59,874 nucleotides of DNA from NCBI GenBank assembly GCA_030651035.1, contig JAUSCK010000076.1, positions 1-59,874 of the forward strand, given 5' to 3'. Shown one piece after another: positions 16,644 through 45,449 of this stretch. Under the pieces are notes generated by a model. It did no database searches and was not told the DNA's origin. It worked only from the letters and a program-made list of their open reading frames with translations. The DNA comes from Elusimicrobiota bacterium. Its GTDB lineage: Bacteria > Elusimicrobiota > Elusimicrobia > Elusimicrobiales > UBA9959. A program made the translations under genes and the position numbers. Every line of letters begins with the position of its first letter. The stretch's first letter is position 1.

Positions 16644-18086
16644 ATGGAACTGGACGAACTGCTTGCAAAATTCCGCGAATACTCCCAGCAGGACACCACT
16701 GTCCTGGAATACGCCTGGAACTACTCCGTCGAGGCCCACCTCGAGCAAAAGCGCGCCTCGGGCGAGATGTACTTCGTGCACTGCGCGGCGGTGGCCGAGA
16801 TACTGGTGGGCTACAAGATGGACCTGGAAACGGTGGCGGCCGGCCTGATGCACGACGTGCTCGAGGACACCAAGATCCCCCACGAGACCTTCAGGAAAGA
16901 ATTCGGCGACGAGATCTACGCGCTGGTGGCCGGCGTCACCAAGATAGAGACGCTGAAGTTCTCCTCGCGCGACGAGGCCCAGGCGGAGAACTGGCGCAAG
17001 ATGATACTGGCCACGGCCAAGGACATCCGCGTGATAGTGATAAAGCTGGCCGACCGGCTGCACAACATGCGCACGCTGAACTTCCTCACGCGCGAGAAGC
17101 AGCTGGAGATAAGCCACGAGACCATCTCCCTTTACGCCCCGCTGGCCCAGCGCCTGGGCATTTTCCAGCTGAAGTCCCAGCTGGAGGACCTCTCCTTCAA
17201 GTACCTGCACCCCGACGAATACCAGAGCCTGCTGGCCAAGGTGCAGCTGCGCTACGCCATGAGCGAGAAGCTGCTGGAGGATTTCAAGACCGGGCTCGAG
17301 AAGCATATCAGCGGCACCCAGATCCCCTGCCGGGTGCTCTCCCGCGCCAAGAACATCTACTCCATTTACCGCAAGATGCTCCGCCAGGAAAAGCCCTTCG
17401 AGGAGATCCAGGACGCGCTGGGCGTGCGCATCATCACCGACAACGTCATAAACTGCTATGCGCTGCTGGGCACGGTGCATTCCATTTTCAAGCCGGTAGC
17501 CGGTTCTTTCACCGACTATATAGCCGTGCCCAAGATGAACCTGTACCAGAGCCTGCACACCAGCGTGATGGCCGCGTCCGGCGAGGTGATAGAGATACAG
17601 ATCCGCACCGAGGAGATGCACCGCACCTCCGAATACGGCATAGCCGCGCACTGGCGCTACAAGATGGGCGAGAAGGGCGCCGACCGCCACCTGGACGAGA
17701 AGCTCAACTGGCTGCGGCAGTGGATGGAATGGCTGCAGGACCTCTCCAGCCCGCGCGAATTCATAGAGAGCTTTAAGACGGACCTGGAGCTGGACCAGAT
17801 CTTCATCTTCACCCCGAAGGGGGACGTGAAGCCGCTGCCGGTGGGCGCCACGCCCTTGGACTTCGCCTACATAATACACTCGGACATCGGCGACACCTGC
17901 ATAGGCGCCAAGGTCAACAACAAGATGGCCCGGCTGGACGCGCCGCTGAAGAGCGGCGACCTCTGCGAGATAATAACCCGCAGGAATTCCGCCCCCAAGA
18001 AGGACTGGCTCACGTCGGTAAAGACGGCCGGCGCCCGCTCCCATATCCGCAAGTACCTGCGCGAGCACGGGCAGCTGGAGGATTAA
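16644..18086 (+). CDS. rel: RelA/SpoT-family (p)ppGpp synthetase/hydrolase, short form (HD-SYNTH-TGS)
   Basis: HDVLEDT and KLADRLHNMRTL (hydrolase); YQSLHT and EIQIRT (synthetase); FTPKG...TPLDFAY..HSDIG (TGS). Ends at 480 aa. Confidence 0.93.
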   Translation: MELDELLAKFREYSQQDTTVLEYAWNYSVEAHLEQKRASGEMYFVHCAAVAEILVGYKMDLETVAAGLMHDVLEDTKIPHETFRKEFGDEIYALVAGVTKIETLKFSSRDEAQAENWRKMILATAKDIRVIVIKLADRLHNMRTLNFLTREKQLEISHETISLYAPLAQRLGIFQLKSQLEDLSFKYLHPDEYQSLLAKVQLRYAMSEKLLEDFKTGLEKHISGTQIPCRVLSRAKNIYSIYRKMLRQEKPFEEIQDALGVRIITDNVINCYALLGTVHSIFKPVAGSFTDYIAVPKMNLYQSLHTSVMAASGEVIEIQIRTEEMHRTSEYGIAAHWRYKMGEKGADRHLDEKLNWLRQWMEWLQDLSSPREFIESFKTDLELDQIFIFTPKGDVKPLPVGATPLDFAYIIHSDIGDTCIGAKVNNKMARLDAPLKSGDLCEIITRRNSAPKKDWLTSVKTAGARSHIRKYLREHGQLED

Positions 18087-18194: not shown

Positions 18195-19637
18195 ATGAGG
18201 CGTCCCGAAGTACTCCTTTTCAAGAGCCGCAGCCTGGCCTCCAAGGTGACGGGAAGCACCCCGCCGCTGGGGCTGCTTTATATAGCCGCCGCCCTGCGCG
18301 AACGGCTGAACGCCGGCGTCCGCGTGATAGACGCCAACCTCGAAGCCGATCCGCTGAAAGCCCTGAGGGACGCCGTACGCTCGGCCAGGCCCGACGTGGT
18401 GGGCATAAGCGCGCTGACCGCCGAGGCTTTCCTCGCCCACGCCGCCGCGGCCGCCGTAAAAGCCGAAAGCCCCGGCACGCCGGTGGTGATGGGCGGCCCG
18501 CACCCGTCTTCCGACCCCGACCTCGCGCTGAAAGACCCCAACATCGACGCGGCCGTCATAGGCGAGGGAGAGGACACTTTCACCGAGCTGGCCCGGCTTA
18601 TAGCTGAGGAGGGCCCCGGCTGGAAAAAGCCGGAGCTCCTGCGCGCCGTGGACGGCCTGGCCTACGCGGCCGAGGGTAAAACCTGGGCCTCAAAACCCCG
18701 CGCGCCCATAGAGGACCTGGACGCCCTGCCTTTCCCGGCGTGGGACCTCATAGATTACAAGCGCTACTGGACGCGCGGCAGCATGGCCAGCGCGGGCATC
18801 CGGCCCTACCTCACGATGTTCACCTCGCGCGGCTGCCCCTACCGCTGCGTCTACTGCCACCAGCTCTTCGGCAAGACCTTCCGCGCCCGCTCCCCCGAAA
18901 GCGTGGCCGAAGAAACGGCGAGGCTGATGAAGATGGGCGCCGGCGACATAGAGATACTCGACGACATAGCCAATTTCAAGCAGGACCGCTTCGACCGGAT
19001 CCTGGAGCTGCTGCTGGAGCGCGGCCTGCACCCGGCCCTGAGCTTTCCCAACGCCATCCGCGCCGACCTCATGCAGGAGCATTCCATCGACCTCCTGAAG
19101 CGGGTGGGCGTCGGCGAGGTCTCGGTGGCGGTGGAGACCGCGTCCGGGCGCCTCCAGGCGCTGCTGGGGAAGAACCTCTCGCTGGAAAAAGTGACCCGCA
19201 CCATAAACCTGCTGGCCGACAGGCGCATCTTCACCCGCGGCTTCTTCATGCTGGGTTTCCCCACCGAGACGGAGGAGGAACTGCGCTCCACCATCAGCTT
19301 CGCGCACTCCTCGCGCCTGCACCTGGCCCTTTTCTTCACCCCGAACCCCTTCCGCAATACCGGGCTTTACGACATGTTCGCCAAAGCCGGCAAGCTCCCC
19401 AAAGACGCCGGCACGATAGACTACGAGTATTACGGCTCGCCGTTCAACGCCAGCGAAGTCCCGGACGCCAGGTACCGCCTGCTTTACCGCTGGGCCTATT
19501 ACGGCTTTTATTTAAACCCGCTGCGCGCCCTGCGCATAGCGCGCGACAGGCCCTCTGTGGCGGATATCCCCGTGCGGGCCTGGAAACTGCTGCGCAACGT
19601 CGTCTCCTTCCGCCGCCTGAAGGAGACCGCCGCATGA
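18195..19637 (+). CDS. B12-binding radical SAM protein 1
   Basis: N-terminal cobalamin-binding domain (PPLGLLYIAA...VMGGPHP...GEGE) and SRGCPYRCVYC (CxxxCxxC). Confidence 0.93.
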   Translation: MRRPEVLLFKSRSLASKVTGSTPPLGLLYIAAALRERLNAGVRVIDANLEADPLKALRDAVRSARPDVVGISALTAEAFLAHAAAAAVKAESPGTPVVMGGPHPSSDPDLALKDPNIDAAVIGEGEDTFTELARLIAEEGPGWKKPELLRAVDGLAYAAEGKTWASKPRAPIEDLDALPFPAWDLIDYKRYWTRGSMASAGIRPYLTMFTSRGCPYRCVYCHQLFGKTFRARSPESVAEETARLMKMGAGDIEILDDIANFKQDRFDRILELLLERGLHPALSFPNAIRADLMQEHSIDLLKRVGVGEVSVAVETASGRLQALLGKNLSLEKVTRTINLLADRRIFTRGFFMLGFPTETEEELRSTISFAHSSRLHLALFFTPNPFRNTGLYDMFAKAGKLPKDAGTIDYEYYGSPFNASEVPDARYRLLYRWAYYGFYLNPLRALRIARDRPSVADIPVRAWKLLRNVVSFRRLKETAA

Positions 19638-21166
19638 AAGTCCTGATGCTCACGCCGCAGCCCCTTTATAGGCGCTGGCCCACCACGCCCGACACCACCA
19701 AGATGGTGACCAATGCCGCCCCGGTCACCATGCCGCAGCTGGCTGCGGCGCTGAAGGGTCACGAGGTGCGCATCCTCGACGGGAACGTTTACGACATACC
19801 GCTTAAAGAGTACGCGGCCCTTATACGCTGGGCCGACGTAGTGGGGATGAACGTGATGTGCTCTTACGCCGCACTGAACACCGAATTAAATCTACGCTTC
19901 ATTAAGAAGCTCAGACCCGGCCTGCCCGTGGTCATGGGCGGCCACCACCCGACTTTCCAGGACGCCGAGTGGCTGGAGCGCGGGGCCGACGCCGTAGTCC
20001 GCCGCGAGGGCGAAATTACCTTCCCGGAGCTGGTGGACGCCCTGGGCGGCAAGCGCGATATCGCCGGCGTGGCCGGCGTCTCCTGGCGTGACCGGGACGG
20101 CGGTATACACCGCAACCAGGACCGCCCTTTCATAAAAGACCTGGACTCGCTGCCGCTGCCGCGCTGGGATTTGGTGGATTTTTCCGGCTACTACCTTTAT
20201 TTCCGCAAGCCGGGCCGCTCGGCCTGCGTCGAGACCGGCCGCGGCTGCGAACAGCACTGCGCCTTCTGTCAGGTGGGGCCCATGTGGAACAATACCCACC
20301 GCTTCAAATCCCCCGAGCGGGTGCTAGAGGAGATGCGCCTGCTGAAGAAGCACGACGTGACCCAGGTCTTCATCGTCGACGACAACTACGGCTCCACCCT
20401 GGACACAGCGCGACAGGCCAGGGTTTACGAGGGGATGCGCAGGGAAAACTTCAACTTCGACTGGGGCGGCTTTTTCCGGCACGACTACATTCACGCCAAT
20501 CACGGCCTGCTGAAGGAGGCCGCCGCCGCCGGCCTGAAATTCGCCTGCGTCGGCTTCGAGAGCGTCGAGACAGCGGACATGAAGCAGTTCAACAAGGGCA
20601 ATGCCGCTTTCAACGGCGCGCCTTCCTACGAGGAGGAATACCGCTTCCTGAAGAGCGCCGGAATAGCGGTGTTCGGCTTCATGGTGATAGGCTACCCCGG
20701 GCAGAGCCAGGCCGCGGCCATGCAGACCATAGAGAACGCCCACCGTTTCTGCGACTACCCCGTAGTCACCGTGTATAAACCCCTGCCGGGCACCGCCGGC
20801 TACCGCAAAACGAAGCAGGACGGGCTGCTGGCCAAGGAAATGTTCTACCACGACTCCTTCACCGTGGCGGTGCGCGGCACCAGGCCCATACTGGCCGCCT
20901 ATAATAAATTTTTCGTGCGCTACCTCGCCAACCCGGTAAGGCTGCTGCGCAACCTCCTCGACCCGAAGCTGCGAGCGGTGGAGACGTCCATAATCACCTG
21001 GTTCGCACTGGGCCTGGCCCGGGCCAACCGGCAGAACCTGGCCGACTTCTTCTGGTTCCTCTTCAAGGGCCGCAAGAGCGGTGAAGAAGAAGTTATAGAG
21101 CATTTGCGGAAAAAATATCTCTCCGAGGAAAATATCGGGCGCCTGGCGCGCAAGGCAAATTTATGA
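19634..21166 (+). CDS. B12-binding radical SAM protein 2
   Basis: True start ATG 19634 overlaps the previous stop (ATGA). MGGHHPT, REGE and GRGCEQHCAFC motifs. The 18740 start in the ORF track is a GC-rich extension. Confidence 0.92.
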   Translation: MKVLMLTPQPLYRRWPTTPDTTKMVTNAAPVTMPQLAAALKGHEVRILDGNVYDIPLKEYAALIRWADVVGMNVMCSYAALNTELNLRFIKKLRPGLPVVMGGHHPTFQDAEWLERGADAVVRREGEITFPELVDALGGKRDIAGVAGVSWRDRDGGIHRNQDRPFIKDLDSLPLPRWDLVDFSGYYLYFRKPGRSACVETGRGCEQHCAFCQVGPMWNNTHRFKSPERVLEEMRLLKKHDVTQVFIVDDNYGSTLDTARQARVYEGMRRENFNFDWGGFFRHDYIHANHGLLKEAAAAGLKFACVGFESVETADMKQFNKGNAAFNGAPSYEEEYRFLKSAGIAVFGFMVIGYPGQSQAAAMQTIENAHRFCDYPVVTVYKPLPGTAGYRKTKQDGLLAKEMFYHDSFTVAVRGTRPILAAYNKFFVRYLANPVRLLRNLLDPKLRAVETSIITWFALGLARANRQNLADFFWFLFKGRKSGEEEVIEHLRKKYLSEENIGRLARKANL

Positions 21167-22701
21167 ACCTGCTTCTGACCACCCCGCTGCGTCTCGTACC
21201 CCGCTTCATGTCGGCCAACGATTTCCCCATGGTCTGGGGCCCTCACCCGCCAATCACCCTCGTGCAGCTGGCCGCGATGGCCGGGCCTTCCTGGAAAGTC
21301 CGCGTACTCGACCCCATCGCCTCGCCTGTAAGCCTCGCCGATTTCGGGCGGTGGATCGCGGAGGCCGATGCCCTGGGCGTCACCTGCTCCGCCTCGCAGC
21401 TGGCTCTGAACGCGGAAATAACCATAAAGCTGGCCCGCCGGCTCAGGCCCGACCTCCCCATTATCATGGGCGGCCACCACCCATCTTTTTATCCTGAGGA
21501 GTGGCTGTCGCGCGGCGCTTCCGTCATAGTCCGCGGCGAAGGGGAGCAGACCATCGCCGAGCTGCTGGAAAGGATCGAAAAGAAGCGGGGGTATCACGGT
21601 GTCGACGGAATATCCTTCCTCGAAGGCGGCAAGGTGGTGCGGACTCCGGACAGGAAGCCGGTGCATGACCTCGACGCCCTGCCTTTCCCCCGCTGGGACC
21701 TGATGGATTTGCGCGGCTACCGGCAGTTCACGCGCCGCGGCGGCCTCACCGTTTCGATGGAAACCTCGCGCGGCTGCACCAACAGCTGCTCTTTCTGCCT
21801 GGCCTCGCGCATGTGGGACGGCAAGCAGCGCTACCGTTCCATCCCGAACGTCATAGAGGACCTGAAACGGCTGCAGGCCATGGGCGCTGACCAGCTGCTT
21901 TTCGTAGGCGACGGCTTCGGCAACCCGACGGACTACCACTCGGAGCTCATGCGCGAGATGATAAAAGCCGGCATAGACATGCACTGGATGTCCTTCATGC
22001 GCGTGGACTCCATATTAAATGATCCCGGCCTGCCGGAGCTCATGGCCCGCTCGGGCTGCAAATCGGTGTTCGTCGGGTTCGAATCCCCGCGGCAGGAGCT
22101 GCTTAAGAGCTGGAAGAAAGGCCCCTCCGGAGCCGCCGACGTCTCGAAGTACCCAGAAGTGTTCCGGCTTCTGGACCAGGCCGGGATCCTGGTCTTCGGT
22201 TTCCTGCTGGTGGGCCATCCCGACGAGCGGCCGGAGGACATCCCGGAGACTATGCGGCTTAACCGGCAGTGGTGCGATATCCCGCTGGTAAACGCGCTGC
22301 AGCCCATGAAAGGTACCCCTGATTACGAGGACTACGAACGGCGGGGAATACTGGCCAAGAACATGTTCTATCACGACGTGCGCATCCCGAGCCTGAAAGG
22401 CGTAGAGAAGCACGTCCCGATAGCCATGCGTATTTTCCTGCTCCAGATACTCTTCGAGTTTCCGTTCCAGCTCTTTTCTGCGAAGGAAACCAAGCGCCGG
22501 TTCATCCGGCATATGTACAGCTTCCTCGCCAGGGAGTTCCTGGCCGCTTCTCTGGACGGCATACTGGACTACCTGATGCTGCTGAACTTCAAGGGACTAA
22601 GCCCGGCCGAGCTGCAGGACACTATTGTCCGGAAGCATACTACCGGGAAGAGGCTGGACGCCCTGGCGCGGCGCGCCGGCTGGAAGCCGGACCGTCAATA
22701 A
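21163..22701 (+). CDS. B12-binding radical SAM protein 3
   Basis: ATGA overlap with the previous gene; MGGHHPS, RGEGE and SRGCTNSCSFC motifs. Confidence 0.92.
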   Translation: MNLLLTTPLRLVPRFMSANDFPMVWGPHPPITLVQLAAMAGPSWKVRVLDPIASPVSLADFGRWIAEADALGVTCSASQLALNAEITIKLARRLRPDLPIIMGGHHPSFYPEEWLSRGASVIVRGEGEQTIAELLERIEKKRGYHGVDGISFLEGGKVVRTPDRKPVHDLDALPFPRWDLMDLRGYRQFTRRGGLTVSMETSRGCTNSCSFCLASRMWDGKQRYRSIPNVIEDLKRLQAMGADQLLFVGDGFGNPTDYHSELMREMIKAGIDMHWMSFMRVDSILNDPGLPELMARSGCKSVFVGFESPRQELLKSWKKGPSGAADVSKYPEVFRLLDQAGILVFGFLLVGHPDERPEDIPETMRLNRQWCDIPLVNALQPMKGTPDYEDYERRGILAKNMFYHDVRIPSLKGVEKHVPIAMRIFLLQILFEFPFQLFSAKETKRRFIRHMYSFLAREFLAASLDGILDYLMLLNFKGLSPAELQDTIVRKHTTGKRLDALARRAGWKPDRQ

Positions 22702-24182
22702 AGCTCGTTCCCCCGCCGTCCTACAGGGTCGCAGCCGAAAAGGGCCTCGAGCCTGTCCGGCATCTTTTCTGAAAGGATAGCAAGCACCGCCATCGCCAGC
22801 TTTATCTTCTCCTCGAATAACCTGCAGCTCCTGGCGTGCGGCCTGGAAATATCCCCGTTGAAATAATGGTTTATATTGAGGCAGGAGCCGGTGGTCCCGC
22901 AGACGCTGAAGATGCGGCAGCTGGCGCATTCCCTGAATCTTTTTTCTGTTTTCTTCAGCAGGGAGAGATATTTTTCCCTGTTCACCCCGGAGCGCACGTT
23001 CCCAAGAGAAAAGGCTTTTATCCCTATAAAGGAAGTGCAGGGGAATATTTCCCCATCGGACGAAACGGCGATCTGCCCCTGTGCCGCGGGGCATCCGCCT
23101 ATAACCTGGTTGTTGTAATACAGCCTCTGCATCAGCTTAAAGAATCTGTTGAAGAATGTTTTCCCGTAATCGAGGGCGCCGCTGACGGCCTCTTCCGAGT
23201 ATTTTCCGGCCAGCAGCTCATATTCCCTGAACATCCTGCGAAAATCCTGTTCCTTCTGAAAAAAAACAGACTCCCTTTCCGGGGTTATCCTGTGACACGC
23301 ATCTTCTGTTTCAAATATTTCCACGCGCTCGAAGCCCATGCTTTTCAGATTATTATAAAGCGCGACCATGTCCGTGTAATACGGCGTGACGGTCGTTCTG
23401 CCTACAAGCCTCCGCCTCGTTGCCGGGCGCATTTTCCCCAGATTTTCAGCTATAGCGGCGAAGCTGCCTTTACCGTCGTGAAAAGGCCTGTTCCGATCGT
23501 GAATCCTCCCGGGGCCGTCCACGCTTACCGCTATCTGCACACCGAAGCCAAGAAGCTTCTCAGCCAGCTCCGGGGTCAGAAGTGTCCCGTTCGTGGCGAG
23601 TAAAAAATGGAACCTTATTTTTTTCTTCTTTTCCAGCGCCTTGCAGTATTCCACCGTGCCGAGAAGGGCAGGAAGGTTTTTAAGGGGTTCTCCGCCGTAG
23701 AAATCCACCACCAGCTGTTTTTCCCCCTGGCTCATTTCAACCAGCAGGTCTACGGCCCGCGCAGCCGTTTCCACGGACATCGGCGGGAGACAGTCGGCTT
23801 CAGCTCCGGGGGCGGTCTTTTTTTTCTCAAAACCTTCGTTTGAATATTTACCGGTATCGTTCCAGCAGTAAATGCAGCGAAGGTTGCAGTCGGAGGTTAT
23901 ATTCAGCGTCAGGTCGGTCAGCCTGGCCGAGGCTTCCGGGACTTCCGGTTTTGTGGTACGGAGCGGGAACAGCGCGGAAATCTCCGCAGGGATGGAAAGC
24001 CTCCGGGCGAGCTTTTCCGCCGCCGCCGCTGAAACTTTCCCGTTCCGTTTTTTTATCTCGTAATTCCACTTTTTAAGGGAATTAAAAACCCCGGTGGGCA
24101 GTTCGTAGAAATCTCCGGTTCCTGTCGAGACGCCTATGCTACGCCCTAATTTTTTAAAAAGATAAGCCGGCTCTTGTTTCAT
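22695..24182 (-). CDS. Radical SAM/SPASM peptide maturase (SCIFF/CteB-like architecture)
   Basis: LTLNITSDCNLRCIYC, DFYGGEPL, TNGTLL, SVDG. Seven-Cys SPASM motif C-x12-G-x4-C...C-x2-C-x5-C-x5-C-x18-C. N-terminal RRE-like segment. RBS GAGGAG at 24192-24187. Confidence 0.92.
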   Translation of the reverse strand: MKQEPAYLFKKLGRSIGVSTGTGDFYELPTGVFNSLKKWNYEIKKRNGKVSAAAAEKLARRLSIPAEISALFPLRTTKPEVPEASARLTDLTLNITSDCNLRCIYCWNDTGKYSNEGFEKKKTAPGAEADCLPPMSVETAARAVDLLVEMSQGEKQLVVDFYGGEPLKNLPALLGTVEYCKALEKKKKIRFHFLLATNGTLLTPELAEKLLGFGVQIAVSVDGPGRIHDRNRPFHDGKGSFAAIAENLGKMRPATRRRLVGRTTVTPYYTDMVALYNNLKSMGFERVEIFETEDACHRITPERESVFFQKEQDFRRMFREYELLAGKYSEEAVSGALDYGKTFFNRFFKLMQRLYYNNQVIGGCPAAQGQIAVSSDGEIFPCTSFIGIKAFSLGNVRSGVNREKYLSLLKKTEKRFRECASCRIFSVCGTTGSCLNINHYFNGDISRPHARSCRLFEEKIKLAMAVLAILSEKMPDRLEALFGCDPVGRRGNELY

Positions 24183-24199
24183 AAGTCTCCTCGCATAAA

Positions 24200-24229
24200 G
24201 CGAAAGTCCCCGCGTTGCGGGGACTTCGC
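24200..24229 (-). terminator. Stem-loop between the putative precursor peptide and the SPASM gene
   Basis: AAGTCCCCGC-GTT-GCGGGGACTT (10-bp perfect stem, extendable to 13 bp with one bulge). On the minus strand it is followed only by TTTAT, so termination is probably leaky. Confidence 0.6.
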
Positions 24230-24250
24230 CGATTCAATATTTAATCGGTT

Positions 24251-24361
24251 TTACCAAAGAACCCTGCCGGAACGGCAGTACCGCGATAGTTTCTTCTCTG
24301 TTTTCCCGGTTTTGTTTAGTTTTTTAACTGTCTTCACTATCGGCTTTGTGATTGTGGGCAT
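24251..24361 (-). CDS. Putative RiPP precursor peptide, 36 aa: MPTITKPIVKTVKKLNKTGKTEKKLSRYCRSGRVLW
   Basis: Translated by hand (below the ORF-track cutoff). ATG 24361, TAA 24253-24251, GGAGG at 24370-24366, near-consensus promoter upstream. Lies 68 nt upstream of the SPASM maturase on the same strand. Confidence 0.8.
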   Translation of the reverse strand: MPTITKPIVKTVKKLNKTGKTEKKLSRYCRSGRVLW

Positions 24362-24391
24362 TTTGCCTCCATATAGCGTACTGTTAGTAAT

Positions 24392-24420
24392 AGTATAAGA
24401 CATAATCCGGCGGATGTCAA
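24392..24420 (-). promoter_or_regulatory. Near-consensus sigma70 promoter for the precursor peptide-SPASM transcript
   Basis: Minus strand reads TTGACA (24420-24415), 17 nt, TATACT (24397-24392). Confidence 0.75.
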
Positions 24421-24538
24421 TACGTAGTTTTCTCTGGCCTTTATTTTCAATAATATCGGGCGTTTACCCTAATCGGATAAGCCGCCGCCTCCCGATAAAA
24501 GCGGTTTAACCAAGCCTCAAACCCGAAAGAGCACAAAT

Positions 24539-24558
24539 TGATATAATCATACATATCA
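24539..24558 (+). promoter_or_regulatory. Extended -10 promoter for the downstream radical SAM operon, overlapped by a short inverted repeat
   Basis: TG-A-TATAAT at 24539-24547; TGATAT-N8-ATATCA at 24539-24558. Confidence 0.5.
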
Positions 24559-24616
24559 GCCTTTCCTAAACATAGCACGCGGGCTTCAATTTTTTCGCGG
24601 TGGACGGAGAAACAAC

Positions 24617-26077
24617 ATGAAAATATTATTTTTAGAACCTCTCCATATATTCTGGGAGTTTTTCAGGGGCCTGACGCCCTCGCATTCCCTCATCTACCTC
24701 GCCGCGGTAGCGCGCCGGGAATTCGAGGTAAAAGTCTTCGACGCATGCATGGAAAAGGAAAACCCCTGGGACAAAACGGCCGAATACCTGGAAAAAGAGC
24801 GCCCCGAGATCGTCGCCATAACGGGCTCGATAACGGGATTCTGGCCCGATACGCTGAACTGCGCGAAGCTGGTCCGCGAAATACTGCCTAAAGCCCGGAT
24901 TATAACCGGCGGCTACACAGCTTCGGTATTCTGGGCGGACGCCCTGAGGGACGGGGCCGCTGACTACGTGGTCCTGGGCGAAGGTGAACTTACGCTGATG
25001 GAGCTTTTGAGGGCGCTGAAAGAGAATAAAACGGATTTTTCCGGCATACTCGGCCTGGCTTACCTTAAGGACGGCGCGCCGGTGAAAAACGCGCCGAGGC
25101 CGTTAATGCAGAACCTCGACGAACTGCCCCCGCCCGCTTACGACCTGTTTCCCATGGAGCATTACGGGCTGGCGCCGTTCGGCGGCAAAGCGGGTTTTAC
25201 CGTAACCTTTGCGAGGGGTTGTCAGCACACCTGCGTGTTCTGCTCCGAAACTGTTTTATGGCGGCACACCTGGCGCGGACATACCCCGCAATACATGGTG
25301 GACACTCTTGAAGTTTTAAATAAAAAATACGGCAAAAGGATATTTTACGTAGGTGACAACGATTTTCTGCACGACGAGGAGCGGACCAAAGCCTTCATCG
25401 CGCTGATGCGTGAAAGACGGCTCGACGTGAAAATGTGGATACAGACCACCTGCGCCAACCTCATTAAAAACGAAAAGCATCTCAAGAATCTCAGGGAAAT
25501 CGGCGTTTACCAGGTAATGTTGGGGATCGAGACCAACAACCCCGAGGGGCTCAAGCGCCTCAACAAGCCTCAGACGCTGGAAACCGTAAACAAGGCGGTC
25601 GCCATCGCGAACACCCACGATTTCATCGTGATGGGGATGCTCATGTGGGGCGCCCCTTGGGACACAAAAGCCGGCCTGCATGACACGTTCAAATTCCTCT
25701 CTGAAAATTGCGACATAATCGGGCCCGATTTCACGACCCCGTGGCCCGGAACGCCTTATTACGCGGAATGCGAAAAGGCGGGCGCGATCGAGGTCCGCGA
25801 CCTTTCCAAATACAATATGATGAACTGCATTACCCGCACCGCCGAGCTTTCGGCTGCGGAATCCGACGCCTATTACAAGAGCGTGGTCGGCAAAGCGCTG
25901 ATCTTCAACAAGAAATCCCTGTATAATTTCTTCTTCTCAAGCAAACTCCTTTACCGCACCTACTTCATGATGTTCGTAAAGATGGGCTGGAGTTTTGTAA
26001 CAGGGAAGCCCTGGCGCCAGAAAAATTACCAGAGTTTCGAGGATTTTATCAGCAAGAGGCGCGGGGTCGCGCGTTAA
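24617..26077 (+). CDS. B12-binding radical SAM protein 4
   Basis: HSLIYLAA, IITGGYTA, GEGE and ARGCQHTCVFC motifs; GGAG RBS. Confidence 0.92.
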   Translation: MKILFLEPLHIFWEFFRGLTPSHSLIYLAAVARREFEVKVFDACMEKENPWDKTAEYLEKERPEIVAITGSITGFWPDTLNCAKLVREILPKARIITGGYTASVFWADALRDGAADYVVLGEGELTLMELLRALKENKTDFSGILGLAYLKDGAPVKNAPRPLMQNLDELPPPAYDLFPMEHYGLAPFGGKAGFTVTFARGCQHTCVFCSETVLWRHTWRGHTPQYMVDTLEVLNKKYGKRIFYVGDNDFLHDEERTKAFIALMRERRLDVKMWIQTTCANLIKNEKHLKNLREIGVYQVMLGIETNNPEGLKRLNKPQTLETVNKAVAIANTHDFIVMGMLMWGAPWDTKAGLHDTFKFLSENCDIIGPDFTTPWPGTPYYAECEKAGAIEVRDLSKYNMMNCITRTAELSAAESDAYYKSVVGKALIFNKKSLYNFFFSSKLLYRTYFMMFVKMGWSFVTGKPWRQKNYQSFEDFISKRRGVAR

Positions 26078-26105
26078 ACCACGGCGCACCGCGGAGAAAG
26101 TGAAT

Positions 26106-26654
26106 ATGCTAAAAATTCCGGACCTGATGAACAAGATCTTCACCCGCAGAAGAATTCTCACGGCGATATCTCTGCTGCCGCTTGCTGTTTTCCTCAAGGT
26201 CGCGCGTCACTACGGCCTCACGGAGGACGCCTGGATGAGGGCCTTCCTGGCCGGCGCGGCCCTCTCCGCCGCCCTCATGGCGGTTTTCGCGGCCATCAGG
26301 GTTCCGCTCAGGGATATCCTGCTCGCCCTGGGGCTGCTGTTCATTTCAGGCGCGGCGGCCTTCCTGGCTGACCTCAGGCCGGTGCTGGCCGTGTATGAGC
26401 GGTTCCAGGGTTCGGTCTTCCTTGTCTGGTATCTACTGGTCAGGGCCGTTTTTTATTTCGCGCCCGAACTGCTCTCCGTTTTTGCTTTCGACCCGTATGA
26501 GAGGGCCCCCGGGCTGGCCGCGGCTCTCACGGCTGGCGTCTTCGTGTGGTCTCTTTTCCACAGGGACATCCTGGTTTCCACAGTCCTGCCGATGACTCTG
26601 ATGATGATCCTGCTTTCCCTGGCCGGGCGCGCCCCCTCTTCGGAAGGCGGATAG
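26106..26654 (+). CDS. Integral membrane protein of unknown function
   Basis: About five to six hydrophobic segments; operonic between rSAM 4 and the FAD oxidoreductase. ATG 26106 preferred over GTG 26100 on SD spacing. Confidence 0.7.
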   Translation: MLKIPDLMNKIFTRRRILTAISLLPLAVFLKVARHYGLTEDAWMRAFLAGAALSAALMAVFAAIRVPLRDILLALGLLFISGAAAFLADLRPVLAVYERFQGSVFLVWYLLVRAVFYFAPELLSVFAFDPYERAPGLAAALTAGVFVWSLFHRDILVSTVLPMTLMMILLSLAGRAPSSEGG

Positions 26655-26661
26655 GCCCGGC

Positions 26662-28218
26662 ATGAAAAAAGTCCCCGGACAATATGACGCGGTGATAATA
26701 GGCGCGGGGCCCGGAGGCCTTTCCGCCGGGCTTTCGCTCGTCCGCAGGGGCTGGAAAGTCCTGATAGCCGAAAAGAACGGGGTCCCCGGAGGGAACTGCA
26801 CTTCCCGCAAGGTGGGCGGCTACACTTTCGACCTGGCGGTGCACCAGCTTTCGGGTATAGGCGGGGGCGGCATCTGCGCCGGCATCCTGCGTGAATACGG
26901 CTTGTCCGATAAGATGGAATTCAGGCAGGTAGACCCTTTCCTGGTGGTGGATATGCCGGACCGTTCCTATACGCTGCGCGGCAGCCGGAATGAGTTCCGG
27001 GACGAACTGCTTAAAGATTTCCCCGGGGAAAAGAAAGATATAGACCTCATGCTGTCCGGGCTGGATTCCCTCAAGAAGGACGCGCTGCTGGCCCAGCGCC
27101 TGCTTCACGGCGGTGACCCGGCAGTGAATGGAATGATCGCCAAAACGGTGGACTGGCTGAAGATAGCGACCTTCCCGTTCACATTCCTATGGGGTTTGGT
27201 TTCAGGAATACCGTTCAGCGCCGATGCCATGCTGCGGCGCTGGGTAAGCAACGAGAAGCTGCGCGCGGTAGTGCACGCCTCCTGGGTGTACCTTGGCCTT
27301 CCTCCTAAGCGTATTTCCGGGGTGATGATGGATGTTTTCCTGGCCATGCAGCACATGGAACATACCTACTACCCGGTGGGGAGCTCTCAAAAATTGGCGG
27401 ACATAATGGCGGAAGCCTTCCGCGCGAACGGAGGGGAGTTGCTGCTTAACTCCCCGGTCAGGAAAATCCTAACGGAAAAGGGGCGCGCCTGCGGCGTGGA
27501 GCTGGCCGGCGGCCGGACGGCCAGCGCGGGGATAGTTATTTCCAACGCCGACGCGCTCCACACCTACCGGCAGCTGCTGGAGCCGGGAGCGGCCCCGGCG
27601 GGATTTATGCCGCGGCTTGAACGGATGAAACTCTCCATGGGTCCCTTCCGCGTCTGCCTCGGCCTGGACTACGACGTAGCCGCGCACGGGATGGACCACC
27701 ACGAGTACATGATCTTCCCTGGTTATGACCATGAGGCGGCGTACGGCGCAATGGAGCGTGGTGAACCCGTCGCCATGAGCGTCTATTCGCCCACAAAAAT
27801 ATGTCCGGAGCTGGCTCCGCCCGGCCACAGTACGCTTATACTGACCACGATGCTTCCATGGCGGCCGGAAAAGGACTGGCGCGGGCGCACCGAAGCGCTG
27901 GCGGCGGAAATGATAGCGCTGGCGGAGAAAAAAAGGTTGCCGGGCCTGGCGCGGCATATAGTGGTAAAACAGATACTGACGCCTGAGGGTCTGCGGGACC
28001 TGACCAACACCGCCGAGGGCTCCATGTACGGCTGGGCTAATACCCCCGAACAGACGCTCTCATTGCGCCTCTCCATGAAGTCGCCTGTGCCGGGCCTCTA
28101 TCATACGGGACACTGGACCAGACCAGGGACCGGTGTGACCACCGCCATTCTTTCAGGCTGGATGCTCGGCAACAGGCTTAACAGCCTGGTCGGAAAGATT
28201 TTTGATAAGCTGTTTTAA
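26662..28218 (+). CDS. FAD-dependent oxidoreductase, phytoene desaturase (COG1233) family
   Basis: IIGAGPGGL, EKNGVPGG, GYTFDLAVH, YPVGSSQKLA, VISNAD, TPEGL...GSMYG and PGLYHTGHWTRPGTGVT motifs. Confidence 0.88.
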   Translation: MKKVPGQYDAVIIGAGPGGLSAGLSLVRRGWKVLIAEKNGVPGGNCTSRKVGGYTFDLAVHQLSGIGGGGICAGILREYGLSDKMEFRQVDPFLVVDMPDRSYTLRGSRNEFRDELLKDFPGEKKDIDLMLSGLDSLKKDALLAQRLLHGGDPAVNGMIAKTVDWLKIATFPFTFLWGLVSGIPFSADAMLRRWVSNEKLRAVVHASWVYLGLPPKRISGVMMDVFLAMQHMEHTYYPVGSSQKLADIMAEAFRANGGELLLNSPVRKILTEKGRACGVELAGGRTASAGIVISNADALHTYRQLLEPGAAPAGFMPRLERMKLSMGPFRVCLGLDYDVAAHGMDHHEYMIFPGYDHEAAYGAMERGEPVAMSVYSPTKICPELAPPGHSTLILTTMLPWRPEKDWRGRTEALAAEMIALAEKKRLPGLARHIVVKQILTPEGLRDLTNTAEGSMYGWANTPEQTLSLRLSMKSPVPGLYHTGHWTRPGTGVTTAILSGWMLGNRLNSLVGKIFDKLF

Positions 28219-28224
28219 CCGCAC

Positions 28225-29643
28225 ATGGCAAAGATCCTCCTGACCAATCCGCCCTGGCAATCTTTCCACACCCTGCAGGTGCTGTTCCCCAATATCCCGC
28301 CGCTGGGACTGCAGATAGTGGCCGGTGTGCTGCGCGCAGCGGGGCACGAGGCTTTGGTGGCCGACGTGCAGCATCTGCGCCCTCTGCACCCTGAATTTAT
28401 AAAGGCGATAGAGGAATTCAAGCCGGACATAATAGGCTTCTCCAATTCGGAACTGCCCAATGCGCCGATGGTGGTGAAGGTGGCGCGTGAAGTGAAGCGC
28501 CGCTACCCCGGGGTGAAGCTGCTGGCCGGCGGACAGGCGCCGAGCTTCCGCCCCGAACTTTTCCTCGGGCCGGCCGGGCCTTTCGACGCGGTGGCGCTCT
28601 ATGAGGCCGAGAGCACGGTGGTACGCATAGTTGACGCGCTGGCCTCAGGCGCCCCGCTGGACAATCTGCCGGGCTGCGCCTGGTGCGCGCCGGACGGATG
28701 CCTCAGGCGTTCCGCCGAGGAGCGCGTGATCTGCGACCTGGATACCCAGCCGATGCCTTACTGGGAGGGCTCGCTGAAGAAATCCGCTTTCTCCGACGGG
28801 CTGTTCGCCGCCCTGGAAACTTCGCGGGGCTGCCCCTTCCGCTGCGCCTTCTGCTCCGTACCAGGCTATTACGGCGCGCCGCGCTACAAGTCGGCCGCGC
28901 GCATACTCGGGGAGCTGCGCAGGCTGAAGGCGCTGGGCGTGGCTGAATTCTCGATAAACGACGATTCTTTCGCCACCCGCCCGCAGGTAGTGCTGGAGAT
29001 CTTCGAGACCATGCTGCGCGAGCGCATGAATTTGCGCTTCGGCGTGCAGATAAGGGCCGACATCATCGTCGCCCACCCGGCCCTGATCGAGTTGGGCGCG
29101 CGTGCGGGTATGTTCATGGCCGTAGTCGGGTTCGAGGGCTACACTTCCGCCGTGCAGGAGGAGTCCAACAAAGGCAACTCCGCGGCGATAAACCGGGAGG
29201 CGTCACGGATACTGCGCCGCAACGGCGTAGCCGTATACGGCACGCACGTGTTCGGCGGGCCGCAGAGCGGGCTCAAGGACAGCCTGGCGACTTTTCTTTA
29301 CGGCCGCCTCAACTCAGATATATTCCGCATGACCATTTATACACCTGTACCGGGGTCCCGGCTCTACGATGACCTGGCTGATTCCTCACAACTGACTTCA
29401 GAGAACCCGGCTGATTTTTACGAGGGGAAATATCTCATAAAGGGCGCGCATAACCCCCTGGTGATACAGTTGAGCTATTACTTCCTGCTCGCGCTGCACT
29501 ACGCCCTGCCGGACACGCTTTTCAAGCTCTTCCACCCTGACGAAGTCATACGCTGCTTCATGCGGCGGGCCTACTGCGGGGCCGTATATTTCGTGCTGGG
29601 CCAGGCCAGCTCCCTTTTCAAAAGGGGGTCTAGATCCGCTTGA
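28225..29643 (+). CDS. B12-binding radical SAM protein 5
   Basis: PPLGLQIVAG, LAGGQAPS, YEAE and SRGCPFRCAFC motifs. Confidence 0.92.
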   Translation: MAKILLTNPPWQSFHTLQVLFPNIPPLGLQIVAGVLRAAGHEALVADVQHLRPLHPEFIKAIEEFKPDIIGFSNSELPNAPMVVKVAREVKRRYPGVKLLAGGQAPSFRPELFLGPAGPFDAVALYEAESTVVRIVDALASGAPLDNLPGCAWCAPDGCLRRSAEERVICDLDTQPMPYWEGSLKKSAFSDGLFAALETSRGCPFRCAFCSVPGYYGAPRYKSAARILGELRRLKALGVAEFSINDDSFATRPQVVLEIFETMLRERMNLRFGVQIRADIIVAHPALIELGARAGMFMAVVGFEGYTSAVQEESNKGNSAAINREASRILRRNGVAVYGTHVFGGPQSGLKDSLATFLYGRLNSDIFRMTIYTPVPGSRLYDDLADSSQLTSENPADFYEGKYLIKGAHNPLVIQLSYYFLLALHYALPDTLFKLFHPDEVIRCFMRRAYCGAVYFVLGQASSLFKRGSRSA

Positions 29644-31076
29644 AGCGCCCCTCCGTACTTCTCATTAAAAGCCGCAGCGTGGTGTCCAAGATAAAGGGCA
29701 CTACGCCGCCGCTCGGCATACTTTACATAGCCGCCTGCCTGCGCCAGCGCCTGGGCGCCGAAGTGCGCGTCGTGGACGCAATGTTCGAACCGGACGCCGC
29801 CGCGACCGTGCTTGCGGCGCTGCGCGAGCAGCAGCCCGACGTGGTCGGCATAAGCGCGCTGACCGCCGAATCTTTCCTGGCACACAAGCTGGCCTCCGCC
29901 GTTAAGGGAGCCAGCCCCGGCACACCGGTGGTGATGGGCGGGCCGCACCCGACCTCCGACCCGGATAGCGCGCTCTCGGACTCTAATGTGGACGCGGTCG
30001 TGATGGGAGAAGGCGAGGAAACTTTCACCGAACTTGTACGCGTGATAGCTGAAGAAGGCCCGCGCTGGCGCGAACCGGCAACGCTGCGGGCAGTGGACGG
30101 GATCGCCTTCAGCCATGAGGGCAAGACCGAGCTTACCAGACACCGCGCCCCTATAACGGACCTTGATTCCCTTCCGTTCCCGGCCTGGGACCTGATCGAC
30201 TATAAAAAGTTCTGGAAGGCCGGCGGCATGGCCACGGTAGGCGTAAGGCCCTACCTCCCCATTTTCACCTCCCGCGGCTGCCCGTACCACTGTGTGTTCT
30301 GCCACCAGATCTTCGGCAAAGCGTTCCGCGCCCGCTCGCCGGAGAACGTGGCTGACGAAGTGGCGCAGATACACAAGCTGGGCACCAGGAACATCGAGGT
30401 ACTGGATGATATTTCCAATTTCGACCCGGATCGTTTCGACCGCATGCTGGAACTATTGCTTGAGCGGGAGCTGCGGTCGGTGCTGAGCTTCCCTAACGCC
30501 ATACGCGCGGACCTTATCCGCGAATCCTCCATCGACCTGCTGAAGCGGGTGGGCGCCGGCGAAGTGTCGGTGGCCGTGGAAACAGCCTCGGAGCGCCTCC
30601 AGAAACTGCTAAAAAAGAACCTCTCCCTCGACAAGGTCAGCCGCACTATAGACATGCTGGCGAACAGGCGTATTTTTACCCGCGGTTTCTTCATGCTTGG
30701 CCTGCCTACGGAAACCGAGGAGGAGCTGCGCGCCACTATACGGTTCGCGCACGCCTCGCGCCTGCACCTCGCGCTCTTCTTTAACCCCAACCCGTTCCAC
30801 AATACCGAGATGTACGAGATGTTCAAGAAGGCCGGCAAGCTGCGCTCCGACGTCAGCACGATAGATTTTGAATATTTCGGGGCGCCTTTCAACGCCAGCG
30901 ACATGCCCGACAGCACCTACCGCATGCTTTACAGGTGGGCTTATTACGGATTTTACCTGAACCCCGCCCGGGCTTACCGCATAGCCCGGGACGGGCCTTT
31001 CGGCTGGGACATACCCGCGCGCGTCTACGGGCTGTTCCGCAACTACACGTCTTTCCGCCGCCTCAAGGAGAGTTGA
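29640..31076 (+). CDS. B12-binding radical SAM protein 6 (paralog of 18195-19637)
   Basis: PPLGILYIAA, MGGPHP and SRGCPYHCVFC motifs. 27 of the first 38 residues are identical to protein 1. Confidence 0.93.
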   Translation: MKRPSVLLIKSRSVVSKIKGTTPPLGILYIAACLRQRLGAEVRVVDAMFEPDAAATVLAALREQQPDVVGISALTAESFLAHKLASAVKGASPGTPVVMGGPHPTSDPDSALSDSNVDAVVMGEGEETFTELVRVIAEEGPRWREPATLRAVDGIAFSHEGKTELTRHRAPITDLDSLPFPAWDLIDYKKFWKAGGMATVGVRPYLPIFTSRGCPYHCVFCHQIFGKAFRARSPENVADEVAQIHKLGTRNIEVLDDISNFDPDRFDRMLELLLERELRSVLSFPNAIRADLIRESSIDLLKRVGAGEVSVAVETASERLQKLLKKNLSLDKVSRTIDMLANRRIFTRGFFMLGLPTETEEELRATIRFAHASRLHLALFFNPNPFHNTEMYEMFKKAGKLRSDVSTIDFEYFGAPFNASDMPDSTYRMLYRWAYYGFYLNPARAYRIARDGPFGWDIPARVYGLFRNYTSFRRLKES

Positions 31077-32509
31077 TGAAAAAGATCCTTATGCTCCAGC
31101 CGCTGCGCGTTTACAGGCGCTGGCCCATGCCGGACGATTTCACCGGGCTGCTGGGAAATTCCCCCACGCTGGCCTTCGCCCAGTTAAGGGGCACGCTCAG
31201 GAACTACGAGTCTGAATTCATGGACGGGCTGGCCGGGAACTTCACTCTCGGTGAACTGACCCGCCGGGCGCAATCGGCCGACGTCGTGATGCTGAACGCG
31301 CATTCCAGCATAGGCGCGCTCAACGTCGAGTTCAACCTGCGCCATATCCTGGACACGGCGCCCGGCAAGCCCGTGATCCTGGGCGGCCACCACGCTACCG
31401 CCTACGATTTCGAATGGCTCGGCCGCGGGGCTCATTTCGTGGTGCGCAACGAGGGCGAGGAAACCATAGACGAGCTCATGGCCGCCATAGAGAAGGGCGG
31501 GCCTTACGGCGGGATCGCCGGGCTTTCCTGGCGCGACGCCGAACGGAATTTCCACCGCAACCCGGCCAGGCCGCTGATCTCCGACCTCGACAGCCTGCCC
31601 ATGCCGGACTGGAAGATCTACGACCCCTCGCTCTATTACCTGCCCCTCGCCATCCCCGGCTATTCCACCACGGCCGAAACCTCGCGCGGCTGCATGCACC
31701 GCTGCCGCTTCTGCGCGGCCAGCGAGATGTGGGGGCACACCCAGCGCTTCAAGAGCCCCGAGCGCGTGCTCGAGGAGCTGCGCGCCGTGCGCAAGCTGGG
31801 CTTCACCAAGATCTGGTTCTCCGACGACAACTTCGGGGCCGAGCCCGAGCGCTACACGAAGATCTACGAGGGGATGATCCGCGAGAACCTGGGCCTGCGC
31901 TTCGCCAGCTTCCTGCGCTGCGACACCGTGACCCGCTCCCCCGAGACGATGAAGCTGGCCTACAGGGCCGGCATGCGCGGGGCGCTGCTGGGCATAGAGA
32001 GCCCGGTGAACCGCATCCTGAAGGATTTCGCCAAGGCCAACGACCATGAGACCACCGTGAAAGCGGTGGAGGTCCTGCGCGGAGCCGGGATCTTCATAGC
32101 GGGCTTCATGATAGTGGGCTACCTGGACGAAACCCAGGCGGAGACCGAGGCGACCTTCAGGGCGGCCGACGAGCTGACCGACTATCCCATCATCTCTATT
32201 TTCGAGCCCCGCATGGGCACGGCCGATTTTACGCGCGCCACCGCGAAACTGGACCTGCCGGGCGGGGACATGTTCTACCACAACACGGTGAAGTTCATCC
32301 CGAGTAAGGCTAGCACCATCAACGATTACAGGGATTTTTACCGCGGGTACATGACGAGCCCCAAGCAGCTGAGGAAGGCGCTGTTCGGAACCCCGGTCCA
32401 GCGGGACTGGTACCGCACTTTGTACCTGAATATGGCGAAATCGGTACTGTCCGTCACTCCCACCAAGGCGGCCCATCCGTGGGAGATGGTTCGCGCCATC
32501 TACCGCTGA
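31076..32509 (+). CDS. B12-binding radical SAM protein 7 (paralog of 19634-21166)
   Basis: Start ATG 31076 overlaps the previous stop (TGATG). N-terminus MKKILMLQPLRVYRRWP resembles protein 2 (MKVLMLTPQPLYRRWP). LGGHHAT and SRGCMHRCRFC motifs. Confidence 0.92.
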   Translation: MKKILMLQPLRVYRRWPMPDDFTGLLGNSPTLAFAQLRGTLRNYESEFMDGLAGNFTLGELTRRAQSADVVMLNAHSSIGALNVEFNLRHILDTAPGKPVILGGHHATAYDFEWLGRGAHFVVRNEGEETIDELMAAIEKGGPYGGIAGLSWRDAERNFHRNPARPLISDLDSLPMPDWKIYDPSLYYLPLAIPGYSTTAETSRGCMHRCRFCAASEMWGHTQRFKSPERVLEELRAVRKLGFTKIWFSDDNFGAEPERYTKIYEGMIRENLGLRFASFLRCDTVTRSPETMKLAYRAGMRGALLGIESPVNRILKDFAKANDHETTVKAVEVLRGAGIFIAGFMIVGYLDETQAETEATFRAADELTDYPIISIFEPRMGTADFTRATAKLDLPGGDMFYHNTVKFIPSKASTINDYRDFYRGYMTSPKQLRKALFGTPVQRDWYRTLYLNMAKSVLSVTPTKAAHPWEMVRAIYR

Positions 32510-32531
32510 CAGCGCCTCCCGCATAGGAGAA

Positions 32532-42253: not shown

Positions 42254-42308
42254 AAAAGAAGAAGAGGGCGGCGGCTGAATCTATTGCAGCTGTCCCGTCC
42301 CTGCCAGG

Positions 42309-44290: not shown

Positions 44291-44329
44291 ATTGGCTCGT
44301 GAAATAAGATCGTTAGGATTTAGCGCCTG

Positions 44330-45251: not shown

Positions 45252-45406
45252 GTTACCTCCGTGAGTATTAGTTGACGTTCCGGATTGAGCAGCTATGGAT
45301 GTAAAACCCGCCACCTAACCTGCTTTCATCATACAAAATCACTTAGGTCTTGCAACGAAATAAAAAAAGGTATCCTGTCACGTCCGCAAGACGCCGAAAA
45401 TGACCT

Positions 45407-45449
45407 GGCGCCCGGCTCTGCATATTCAGGCGGCCGGCGCCGGTTTTTT
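45407..45449 (+). terminator. Terminator-like hairpin plus T6 in the leader of the acetate kinase fusion
   Basis: GGCGCCCGGC (45407-45416) pairs with GCCGGCGCC (45433-45441) with one bulge; TTTTTT at 45444-45449. Confidence 0.45.

Follow-up and report, generated by a model that had tools for sequence, protein, structure and literature searches.

Among the described peptide-modifying systems, the one closest to the locus reported here is SCIFF (CteA/CteB), a ranthipeptide system of Clostridia in which a short precursor gene directly precedes the gene for a radical S-adenosylmethionine (radical SAM)/SPASM maturase of ~450-500 amino acids (aa), with a recognition element (RRE) for peptides that are made on the ribosome and modified after translation (RiPPs) fused to its N-terminus. 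The RRE of CteB binds the CteA leader as a β-strand, while an open site on an auxiliary cluster binds the substrate cysteine (PMC8326336). The acceptors reported for ranthipeptides and for QhpD substrates are Asp, Glu, Thr and Asn, and the conservation of SCIFF without a protease or exporter has been used to argue against an antibiotic role (PMC8326336). Here, we analyzed a contig of an Elusimicrobiota bacterium (JAUSCK010000076.1; 59,874 nt, the whole of which is referred to as the window) that carries, on the minus strand and just upstream of a SPASM gene, an open reading frame (ORF) of 36 codons. Judging from comparative sequence evidence, this ORF is very likely a genuine, translated gene for the precursor of an undescribed family of ribosomal, radical SAM-modified peptides.

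The locus shares with SCIFF the position of a short precursor directly before a maturase of this size and architecture, a Lys-rich leader, a maturase that aligns with CteB over the full length and has its best fold match there, and a peptide that is highly conserved across species and lacks a dedicated protease or exporter. It differs from SCIFF in having one cysteine (two in one subtype) rather than six, and in a peptide of 26-36 aa with a core that sits at the extreme C-terminus, ends in Trp and offers no Thr, Asp or Asn acceptor. Moreover, the precursor matches no model, the maturase scores 180 bits against a SCIFF cut-off of 425, and the system occurs sporadically in Omnitrophota and Elusimicrobiota, together with a strictly co-occurring B12-binding radical SAM protein. 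By sequence, CteA/CteB is the closest known system, and by the tests applied the window's peptide is not a member of it.

A short gene under selection next to a radical SAM/SPASM maturase

Homologs of the maturase are numerous in metagenome-assembled genomes (MAGs) of Elusimicrobia and Omnitrophota. A scan with one genome per species retrieved 77 maturase loci, of which the 50 closest are 36-84% identical to the window's protein, and the DNA within 4 kb of each homolog was searched for a short ORF whose product terminates with [Y/F]C[R/G][S/C][G/S]RVLW, the stop codon coming next. Such an ORF was present in 46 of the 50 closest loci, from Elusimicrobiota, Omnitrophota and a Myxococcales MAG; the original prediction had named a YCRSG/VLW-type core recurring beside homologous maturases as the pattern to expect of a true precursor, and this is the pattern found. 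The peptide lies just upstream of the maturase and on its strand in 41 of the 46 loci, and just downstream and convergent in the other five (L005, L015, L019, L020 and L035). Three of the four loci without a peptide (L036, L044 and L048) end at a contig edge, and for the fourth, L009, the peptide was found on another contig of the same genome. No such peptide was found near the 27 more distant maturase homologs (≤34% identity).

A short ORF that sits in a 435-nt divergent intergenic region and is followed by an attenuator-like hairpin might have arisen by chance, be an upstream leader ORF or belong to a structured 5′ untranslated region of the maturase gene, none of which would give a peptide product of its own; 36 codons alone could indeed arise by chance. 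However, the 37 identical LSRYCRSGRVLW cores are encoded by 33 distinct DNA sequences. Across the 13 codons of these cores, the variable columns number 4, 1 and 12 at codon positions 1, 2 and 3, respectively; the changes include CGN/AGR and CTN/TTR switches within six-fold codon families, and all three stop codons are used. Variation at 12 of 13 third positions under a fixed core indicates purifying selection on the protein and so rules out both an RNA motif and an ORF arisen by chance. Further evidence against an ORF without product is that it is kept on the convergent side of the maturase (five loci) or on another contig, and that no Rfam family reached its threshold: in a scan of positions 23900-24900 at a permissive setting, the best match scored 21.6 bits, where the gathering score is 55. 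Conservation across the loci and the synonymous pattern together put the ORF beyond chance, leave this alternative with practically no probability and confirm, at the level of sequence comparison, 24361..24251 as a real, strongly selected peptide gene.

The expression signals listed in the original prediction, i.e., promoter, GGAGG, 36-aa ORF, stem-loop and a SPASM gene downstream, are all in place on the minus strand (Table 1). The promoter sequence TTGACA-17-TATACT matches the consensus at 11 of 12 positions; searched for exactly, it has a single occurrence in the 59.9-kb window, and none of 100 shuffles contained it. Four Elusimicrobia loci, this one included, have an invariant −35 TTGACA at the same spacing from a −10 element that reads TATACT, TATAAT or TATAGA. 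They also keep the GGAG, the ATG-CC start and the hairpin stem GAAGTCCCCG/CGGGGACTTC (GGAG and stem sequence being retained in L001-L003), with the neighboring intergenic DNA diverged. This conservation is consistent with a function of the element as promoter. A longer in-frame form of 50 aa would begin at an ATG at position 24403. Since this codon falls inside the promoter spacer, and since the sequence shared by relatives starts with M-P-(T/A), immediately behind a GGAG that is conserved as well, the 36-aa start is the correct one.

Between the peptide and the ATG of the 495-aa maturase gene at position 24182, which is itself preceded by GAGGAG, lies a 68-nt spacer that contains the hairpin and folds at −28 kcal/mol (z = −4.4; 0 of 200 shuffles folded equally well). 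Loci of the second subtype described below have strong hairpins of unrelated sequence, followed by T-runs. Hairpins that throttle read-through from precursor to maturase are common in RiPP operons, and that at 24204..24226 is probably a partial terminator or attenuator.

Anatomy of the peptide family and its maturase

When 18 representatives were aligned and 43 distinct sequences combined in a logo, the peptide divided into two parts. In the C-terminal core (Table 1), the Arg after the Cys and the Gly are near-invariant, the residue before the Cys is Tyr or Phe, and the Cys itself is invariant in all 53 peptides in which the leader motif was counted. The N-terminal part is rich in Lys/Arg (MPTITKPIVKTVKKLNKTGKTEKKLSRYCRSGRVLW has ~14 such residues in 36) and variable in both sequence and length, whole peptides ranging from 26 to 53 aa. 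Within it lies, in 48 of the 53 peptides and in both main subtypes, an [LIV]-N-[KR] motif whose Asn precedes the Cys by exactly 13 residues. By analogy with CteA and CteB (PMC8326336), this motif is presumably the strand that binds the RRE, and its fixed spacing is what would be expected if a recognition domain kept such a strand at a set distance from the active site.

Peptides contain one Cys, or two in the subtype in which Ser31 is replaced by a second one. The subtype ..KKLSRYCRSGRVLW pairs with maturases that are 53-84% identical to the window's, and the subtype ..YRAAFCRCGRVLW or ..RARFCGCSRVLW (..AAFCRCGRVLW) with maturases of 37-41% identity; a third, ..RTR[FY]CRSGRVLW, was found in L047 and in the Myxococcales MAG L050. 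As far as these pairings show, the peptide subtype follows the enzyme clade, i.e., peptide and maturase change together. In locus L018, ..LSRYCRSGRVLW and ..AAFCRCGRVLW peptides are encoded 5 kb apart (283-387 and 5216-5296). Two subtypes in one locus imply that they can coexist as separate systems.

None of four representative peptides matched a precursor family of NCBIfam or Pfam at E ≤ 10, and a profile search of Protein Data Bank (PDB) chains with the peptide returned only a histone tail (E = 5.8). In public databases, such peptides make up 26 clusters, which bear the name 'hypothetical protein' at most, and the literature searched, which included work on Omnitrophota RiPP/SPASM systems and on ranthipeptides with cobalamin, yielded no description of the peptide or of the GRVLW motif. 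Gene callers and family libraries miss this peptide gene.

In the maturase, the CX3CX2C motif (C99/C103/C106) and the SPASM cysteines C364, C382, C419, C422, C428, C434 and C453 are invariant in 24 homologs. Its best NCBIfam matches are PapB (228.5 bits), the Nif11-peptide maturase (217), QhpD (191) and the SCIFF maturase (180.2), all four of them Cys-thioether synthases, and families that form cyclophanes or ethers score much lower (YhhB 89 bits, DynA 75, FxsB 62). A profile search of the PDB returned CteB (5WGG) as the best hit (E = 7e-67) over residues 5-467, N-terminal region included. All seven SPASM cysteines align one to one with those of CteB, and residues 5-100 align with its RRE-containing N-terminus. 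The AlphaFold (AF2) model of the maturase (predicted local distance difference test (pLDDT) 86.5, predicted template modeling score (pTM) 0.88) has an N-terminal domain with strands at residues 6-11, 14-19 and 25-27 and helices at 30-45, 52-61 and 66-69 (pLDDT 85-96). Foldseek with this model ranked CteB chains best (template modeling (TM) score 0.72-0.84), with anSME next. By alignment and model, the maturase is a full-length homolog of CteB, the SCIFF maturase, with an RRE-like N-terminus at ~residues 1-75.

These data bear out three further elements of the original prediction, namely the bipartite build of the peptide (a variable Lys/Arg-rich leader, here with a motif at fixed distance, followed by a conserved C-terminal core), a core unlike those of known precursors, and a likeness to SCIFF. 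An adjacent conserved precursor, a CX3CX2C motif with a seven-Cys SPASM domain and an RRE-like domain, the latter as predicted by model, place the locus among the RRE-dependent radical SAM/SPASM RiPP systems, new families of which are found fairly often. The families that score best, PapB/freyrasin, the Nif11 type and QhpD, are Cys-to-Asp/Glu thioether synthases and employ a Cys donor, as is proposed here, but the scores lie under their cut-offs. In addition, the CX3D repeats that mark the freyrasin family are absent here, and QhpD acts on a protein subunit rather than on a free peptide.

We also considered that the product might be a small basic protein that is no substrate at all, i.e., a regulator, a nucleic-acid or membrane binder, or an accessory subunit or activator of radical SAM enzymes that is merely co-inherited with them. 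Its ~14 Lys/Arg per 36 residues, the weak histone-like matches of the Lys-rich part and a module without protease or exporter would suit such a role. Yet the partner enzyme falls into the peptide-maturase branch and has an RRE-like, peptide-binding domain; it is the Lys-rich part that varies, whereas the invariant part is a C-terminal motif of 9-12 residues with the Cys. The leader motif, moreover, keeps its fixed distance from that Cys, and the peptide subtype tracks the enzyme clade. We regard a non-substrate role as very improbable.

A co-inherited B12-binding radical SAM protein and the proposed pathway

When ORFs of at least 90 aa were clustered across 51 loci, B12-binding radical SAM proteins were the sole recurrent neighbor (17 loci), and no protease or transporter/exporter recurred near the peptide. 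In 11 Omnitrophota loci, the maturase gene is immediately followed, on its own strand, by the gene for a B12-binding radical SAM protein of ~520 aa. The ~520-aa proteins share 72-87% identity, also among loci whose maturases share only ~40%, and in several Omnitrophota loci two or three B12-binding radical SAM genes follow the maturase. Of 151 evenly sampled Omnitrophota genomes, six have the peptide, and precisely these six have the ~520-aa protein (E < 1e-120); in G301, G397 and G417 the two are found on different contigs.

A B12-binding radical SAM gene at 24617-26077 in the window is divergent from the peptide gene. Among the 41 genomes of the window's family, the peptide, the maturase and an ortholog of the 24617-26077 protein (E < 1e-100) are each present in the same two, G000 and G212. 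Two further peptide-bearing Elusimicrobia genomes carry this ortholog, at 71% and 67% identity, and a gene of the 24617 type adjoins the peptide in L002, L003 and G212. In a phylogenetic tree, the Omnitrophota ~520-aa proteins form the sister group of the 24617 clade (support 91/94). As delimited by these profiles, the functional unit is the peptide, the SPASM maturase and one lineage of B12-binding radical SAM proteins, which strictly co-occur; 24617-26077 is presumed to encode a second tailoring enzyme of the peptide.

Proteusins/polytheonamides and other RiPPs that are C-methylated by B12-binding radical SAM enzymes resemble this unit in combining a ribosomal peptide with a class-B (cobalamin) radical SAM enzyme. 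They differ in their nitrile-hydratase-like or Nif11 leaders, absent here, and in the methyltransferase itself: against the TIGR03975 cut-off of 281.85 for RiPP C-methyltransferases of this class, the 24617-26077 protein scores 105.8 bits and the Omnitrophota ~520-aa protein 69, and the best match, BchE, also stays below its cut-off.

We propose the following pathway. Transcription of the short gene would start from its own sigma-70-type promoter, with the hairpin passing only part of the transcripts on to the maturase gene; such partial read-through would cause the peptide to outnumber the enzyme. The [LIV]-N-[KR] strand of the Lys-rich leader would dock on the RRE-like N-terminal domain, the architecture of which is seen in alignment and model. 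By homology, the maturase would take hydrogen from R33, V34, L35 or W36, and that carbon would be bonded to the Cys29 sulfur, which the open auxiliary iron-sulfur cluster would hold, giving one small C-terminal thioether ring. Homology to the PapB, QhpD, Nif11 and SCIFF maturases suggests this single thioether between Cys29 and a carbon of R33-W36 to be the most likely reaction. The B12-binding radical SAM protein that co-occurs with the pair may add a further modification, most simply C-methylation.

Several observations weigh against this proposal. On the expression side, the 4 nt between GGAGG and ATG are a short distance, the hairpin at 24204..24226 has a poor T-run and was not reported by a simple terminator scan, and in most AT-rich Omnitrophota loci a clear hairpin is weak or absent. 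On the side of chemistry, the maturase lies below every NCBIfam cut-off (PapB (NF047865) 340, Nif11 519, QhpD 453 and SCIFF (TIGR03974) 425), so its reaction is not confidently transferable from these families. The invariant core residues are C, R, V, L and W, with no conserved Asp, Glu, Thr or Asn, and because no known ranthipeptide acceptor type is found among R33-W36, a different cross-link stays a serious rival. As for the B12-binding partner, the sister relation joins two long branches at a support of only 91/94, and the window's genome contains no close ortholog of the ~520-aa protein, the best match being 30-31% identical. Moreover, the counts of co-occurrence, which are uncorrected for phylogeny, lack phylogenetic independence, and two of the six carriers among the Omnitrophota had been known beforehand.

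The rival chemistry would leave the peptide as the true SPASM substrate and assumes a C-C or C-O cross-link at Tyr28/Trp36, of the cyclophane, streptide or darobactin type, or an MftC-like decarboxylation/cyclization of Val-Leu-Trp. The latter variant would turn the peptide into a redox cofactor, or would release a small molecule derived from Trp from the scaffold peptide. Such chemistry would fit the invariance of the aromatic residue before the Cys and of the Trp right at the stop codon, the logo without a conserved acceptor, the scores of the maturase under all family cut-offs and its additional matches to the cyclophane/ether families YhhB, DynA and FxsB. A conserved core with a drifting leader, moreover, is characteristic of the cofactor precursors PqqA and MftA. 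Indeed, the locus has in common with the mycofactocin (MftA/MftC) and pyrroloquinoline quinone (PQQ; PqqA/PqqE) systems a short peptide with a conserved C-terminal core, the combination of a radical SAM/SPASM enzyme with an RRE, a patchy presence across taxa and a core conserved across phyla. However, no MftB/D/E/F- or PqqB/C/D-like genes recur near the module, MftC and PqqE are outside the 25 best NCBIfam families, and the core motif is another one, with an invariant Cys; MftA ends in ..GVY, the peptide here in RVLW. That this Cys is present in 53 of 53 peptides, that the thioether synthase matches are 2-3 times stronger than those to the cyclophane/ether families, and that the only close solved structure is that of a thioether synthase, CteB, likewise argue for the thioether. 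We therefore see other chemistry as a minority possibility, albeit one to be taken seriously.

Whichever bond is formed, the thioether of the proposed pathway or another, these peptides add a well-supported, unnamed precursor family to the radical SAM-modified peptides, from the largely uncultured phyla Omnitrophota and Elusimicrobiota. The family combines a very short, extremely basic precursor, a frozen core, a single donor Cys, the lack of a usual acceptor and a dedicated B12-binding radical SAM protein, an unusual mix that points to new cross-link or tailoring chemistry. As the three genes occupy under 3.5 kb, the module is directly testable by heterologous co-expression.

Distribution, possible role and genes around the module

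The peptide gene is single-copy in the window's own genome. It was detected in two of 301 sampled Elusimicrobiota (<1%) and in none of six congeners, in six of 151 sampled Omnitrophota genomes (~4% of species) and in one Myxococcales MAG (L050). One of these Omnitrophota genomes, G327, has three peptide genes, and L008 and L039 are two loci of one MAG. The sporadic spread of a peptide with a frozen core suggests that the module is mobile and accessory and that its product interacts with a conserved partner. The lack of a recurrent protease or exporter, the core invariant across phyla and the drifting leader make such a conserved cellular partner, as for a signal or cofactor-like product, likelier than a diversifying antibiotic. 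More specifically, a three-part module transferred horizontally among Omnitrophota, Elusimicrobiota and Myxococcota might make a conserved molecule for use inside the cell, comparable to mycofactocin or PQQ, rather than a secreted natural product, be it a peptide-derived cofactor, a signal or a Trp-derived small molecule that is built on the invariant C-terminus; we hold this narrower reading to be rather unlikely.

A nitrogenase paralog was considered as a required partner and rejected. Groundwater Elusimicrobia have a novel nitrogenase paralog (group VI) with a suite of radical SAM genes, and GWF2_62_30 from that study is the genome of locus L001 (bioRxiv 10.1101/765248). NifH-like genes are present in G473, G474 and G304, the genomes of L001, L002 and L050, respectively, and absent from the window's genome, G212 and the Omnitrophota carriers G301 and G302; the window itself contains no NifH-like gene.

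Table 1 Positions of the peptide gene, its signals and the neighboring radical SAM genes (numbering of the window)
Feature	Position	Strand	Remarks
Precursor peptide gene	24361..24251	minus	36 codons + TAA; product MPTITKPIVKTVKKLNKTGKTEKKLSRYCRSGRVLW; direct reading and translation
Core L25-W36 of the peptide	24254..24289	minus	LSRYCRSGRVLW, at the C-terminus; C29, R33, V34, L35 and W36 invariant in relatives
Leader motif L15-N16-K17 of the peptide	24311..24319	minus	[LIV]-N-[KR]; N16 exactly 13 residues before Cys29
Putative sigma-70-type promoter	24392..24420	minus	−35 TTGACA 24420-24415; spacer 17 nt; −10 TATACT 24397-24392
Shine-Dalgarno sequence GGAGG	24366..24370	minus	4 nt 5′ of the peptide ATG; direct reading
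10-bp GC-rich hairpin	24204..24226	minus	GAAGUCCCCG-CAA-CGGGGACUUU; between peptide stop and SPASM start
Radical SAM/SPASM maturase	22695..24182	minus	495 aa; Pfam Radical_SAM and SPASM, both above cut-offs
B12-binding radical SAM protein	24617..26077	plus	486 aa; Pfam B12-binding and Radical_SAM; divergent from peptide; in island
B12-binding radical SAM gene	18195-19637		in island
B12-binding radical SAM gene	~19631-21166		in island
B12-binding radical SAM gene	21163-22701		in island
CrtI-family flavoprotein	26662-28218		in island
B12-binding radical SAM gene	28225-29643		in island
B12-binding radical SAM gene	29640-31076		in island
B12-binding radical SAM gene	30935-32509		in island
B12-binding radical SAM gene	32532-33899	minus	in island

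The module is embedded in an island of 15.7 kb (18195-33899) that contains eight B12-binding radical SAM genes and is bordered by relA/spoT and aconitase genes. The original prediction had hinted at a tie between the peptide and this surrounding cluster, which holds for 24617-26077, as the single member of the eight B12-binding radical SAM genes that tracks the peptide, and fails for the rest. On another reading, the peptide and SPASM genes would form one cluster with the whole island, i.e., with all eight of these genes, the CrtI-like gene and that for a membrane protein, and every enzyme encoded there would act on this one peptide in a polytheonamide-like hyper-modification. The peptide/SPASM pair does lie centrally within the island, G212 has the whole island in synteny, with all genes on one strand, and some Omnitrophota loci have 2-3 B12-binding radical SAM genes after the maturase. 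The phylogenetic profiles largely contradict this idea, though. Orthologs of 21163-22701 occur in five of the 41 family genomes, three of them without peptide, maturase and 24617 ortholog, and orthologs of the CrtI-like 26662-28218 in seven, of which five lack all three. Furthermore, most peptide loci elsewhere have no such island, and all of the B12-binding radical SAM proteins score far under the TIGR03975 cut-off. A single cluster is thus improbable, and by these profiles the B12-binding radical SAM/CrtI set of the island exists independently of the peptide module. With 21163-like and CrtI-like genes also present in congeners without the peptide, the island's substrate is probably something else, possibly a lipid.

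All B12-binding radical SAM proteins of the island are below every NCBIfam cut-off, their best matches being BchE, HpnR or HpnJ. In the tree, the 18195 gene groups with the 29640 gene (support 100/100) and the 19631 gene with the 30935 gene (99/95), paired groupings which indicate that a two-gene unit was duplicated inside the island. The ORF at 18740-21166 (GTG start) is over-extended, homology starting at ~19631. Directly after 24617-26077, the ORF at 26100-26654 encodes a 184-aa protein with about five hydrophobic segments that matches no Pfam or NCBIfam family; its counterpart in G212, of 59% identity, is encoded beside the CrtI-like gene, and it was not seen in other peptide loci.

Elsewhere in the window, the RelA/SpoT-family protein encoded at 16644-18086 (480 aa) matches the TIGR00691 model, which has 687 positions, only at model positions 1-451 (HD, synthetase and TGS domains), and its usual C-terminal region seems to be missing. 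On the minus strand, 39368-44782 comprises a set of genes for a multihaem cytochrome c, a 4Fe-4S dicluster protein and an NrfD-like membrane protein that occurs twice in succession; no catalytic subunit was recognized among the genes scanned. Finally, 45400-47838 encodes an unusual fusion protein of 812 aa, in which a cyclic-nucleotide-binding domain is combined with a complete acetate kinase and a PduL-type phosphotransacylase.

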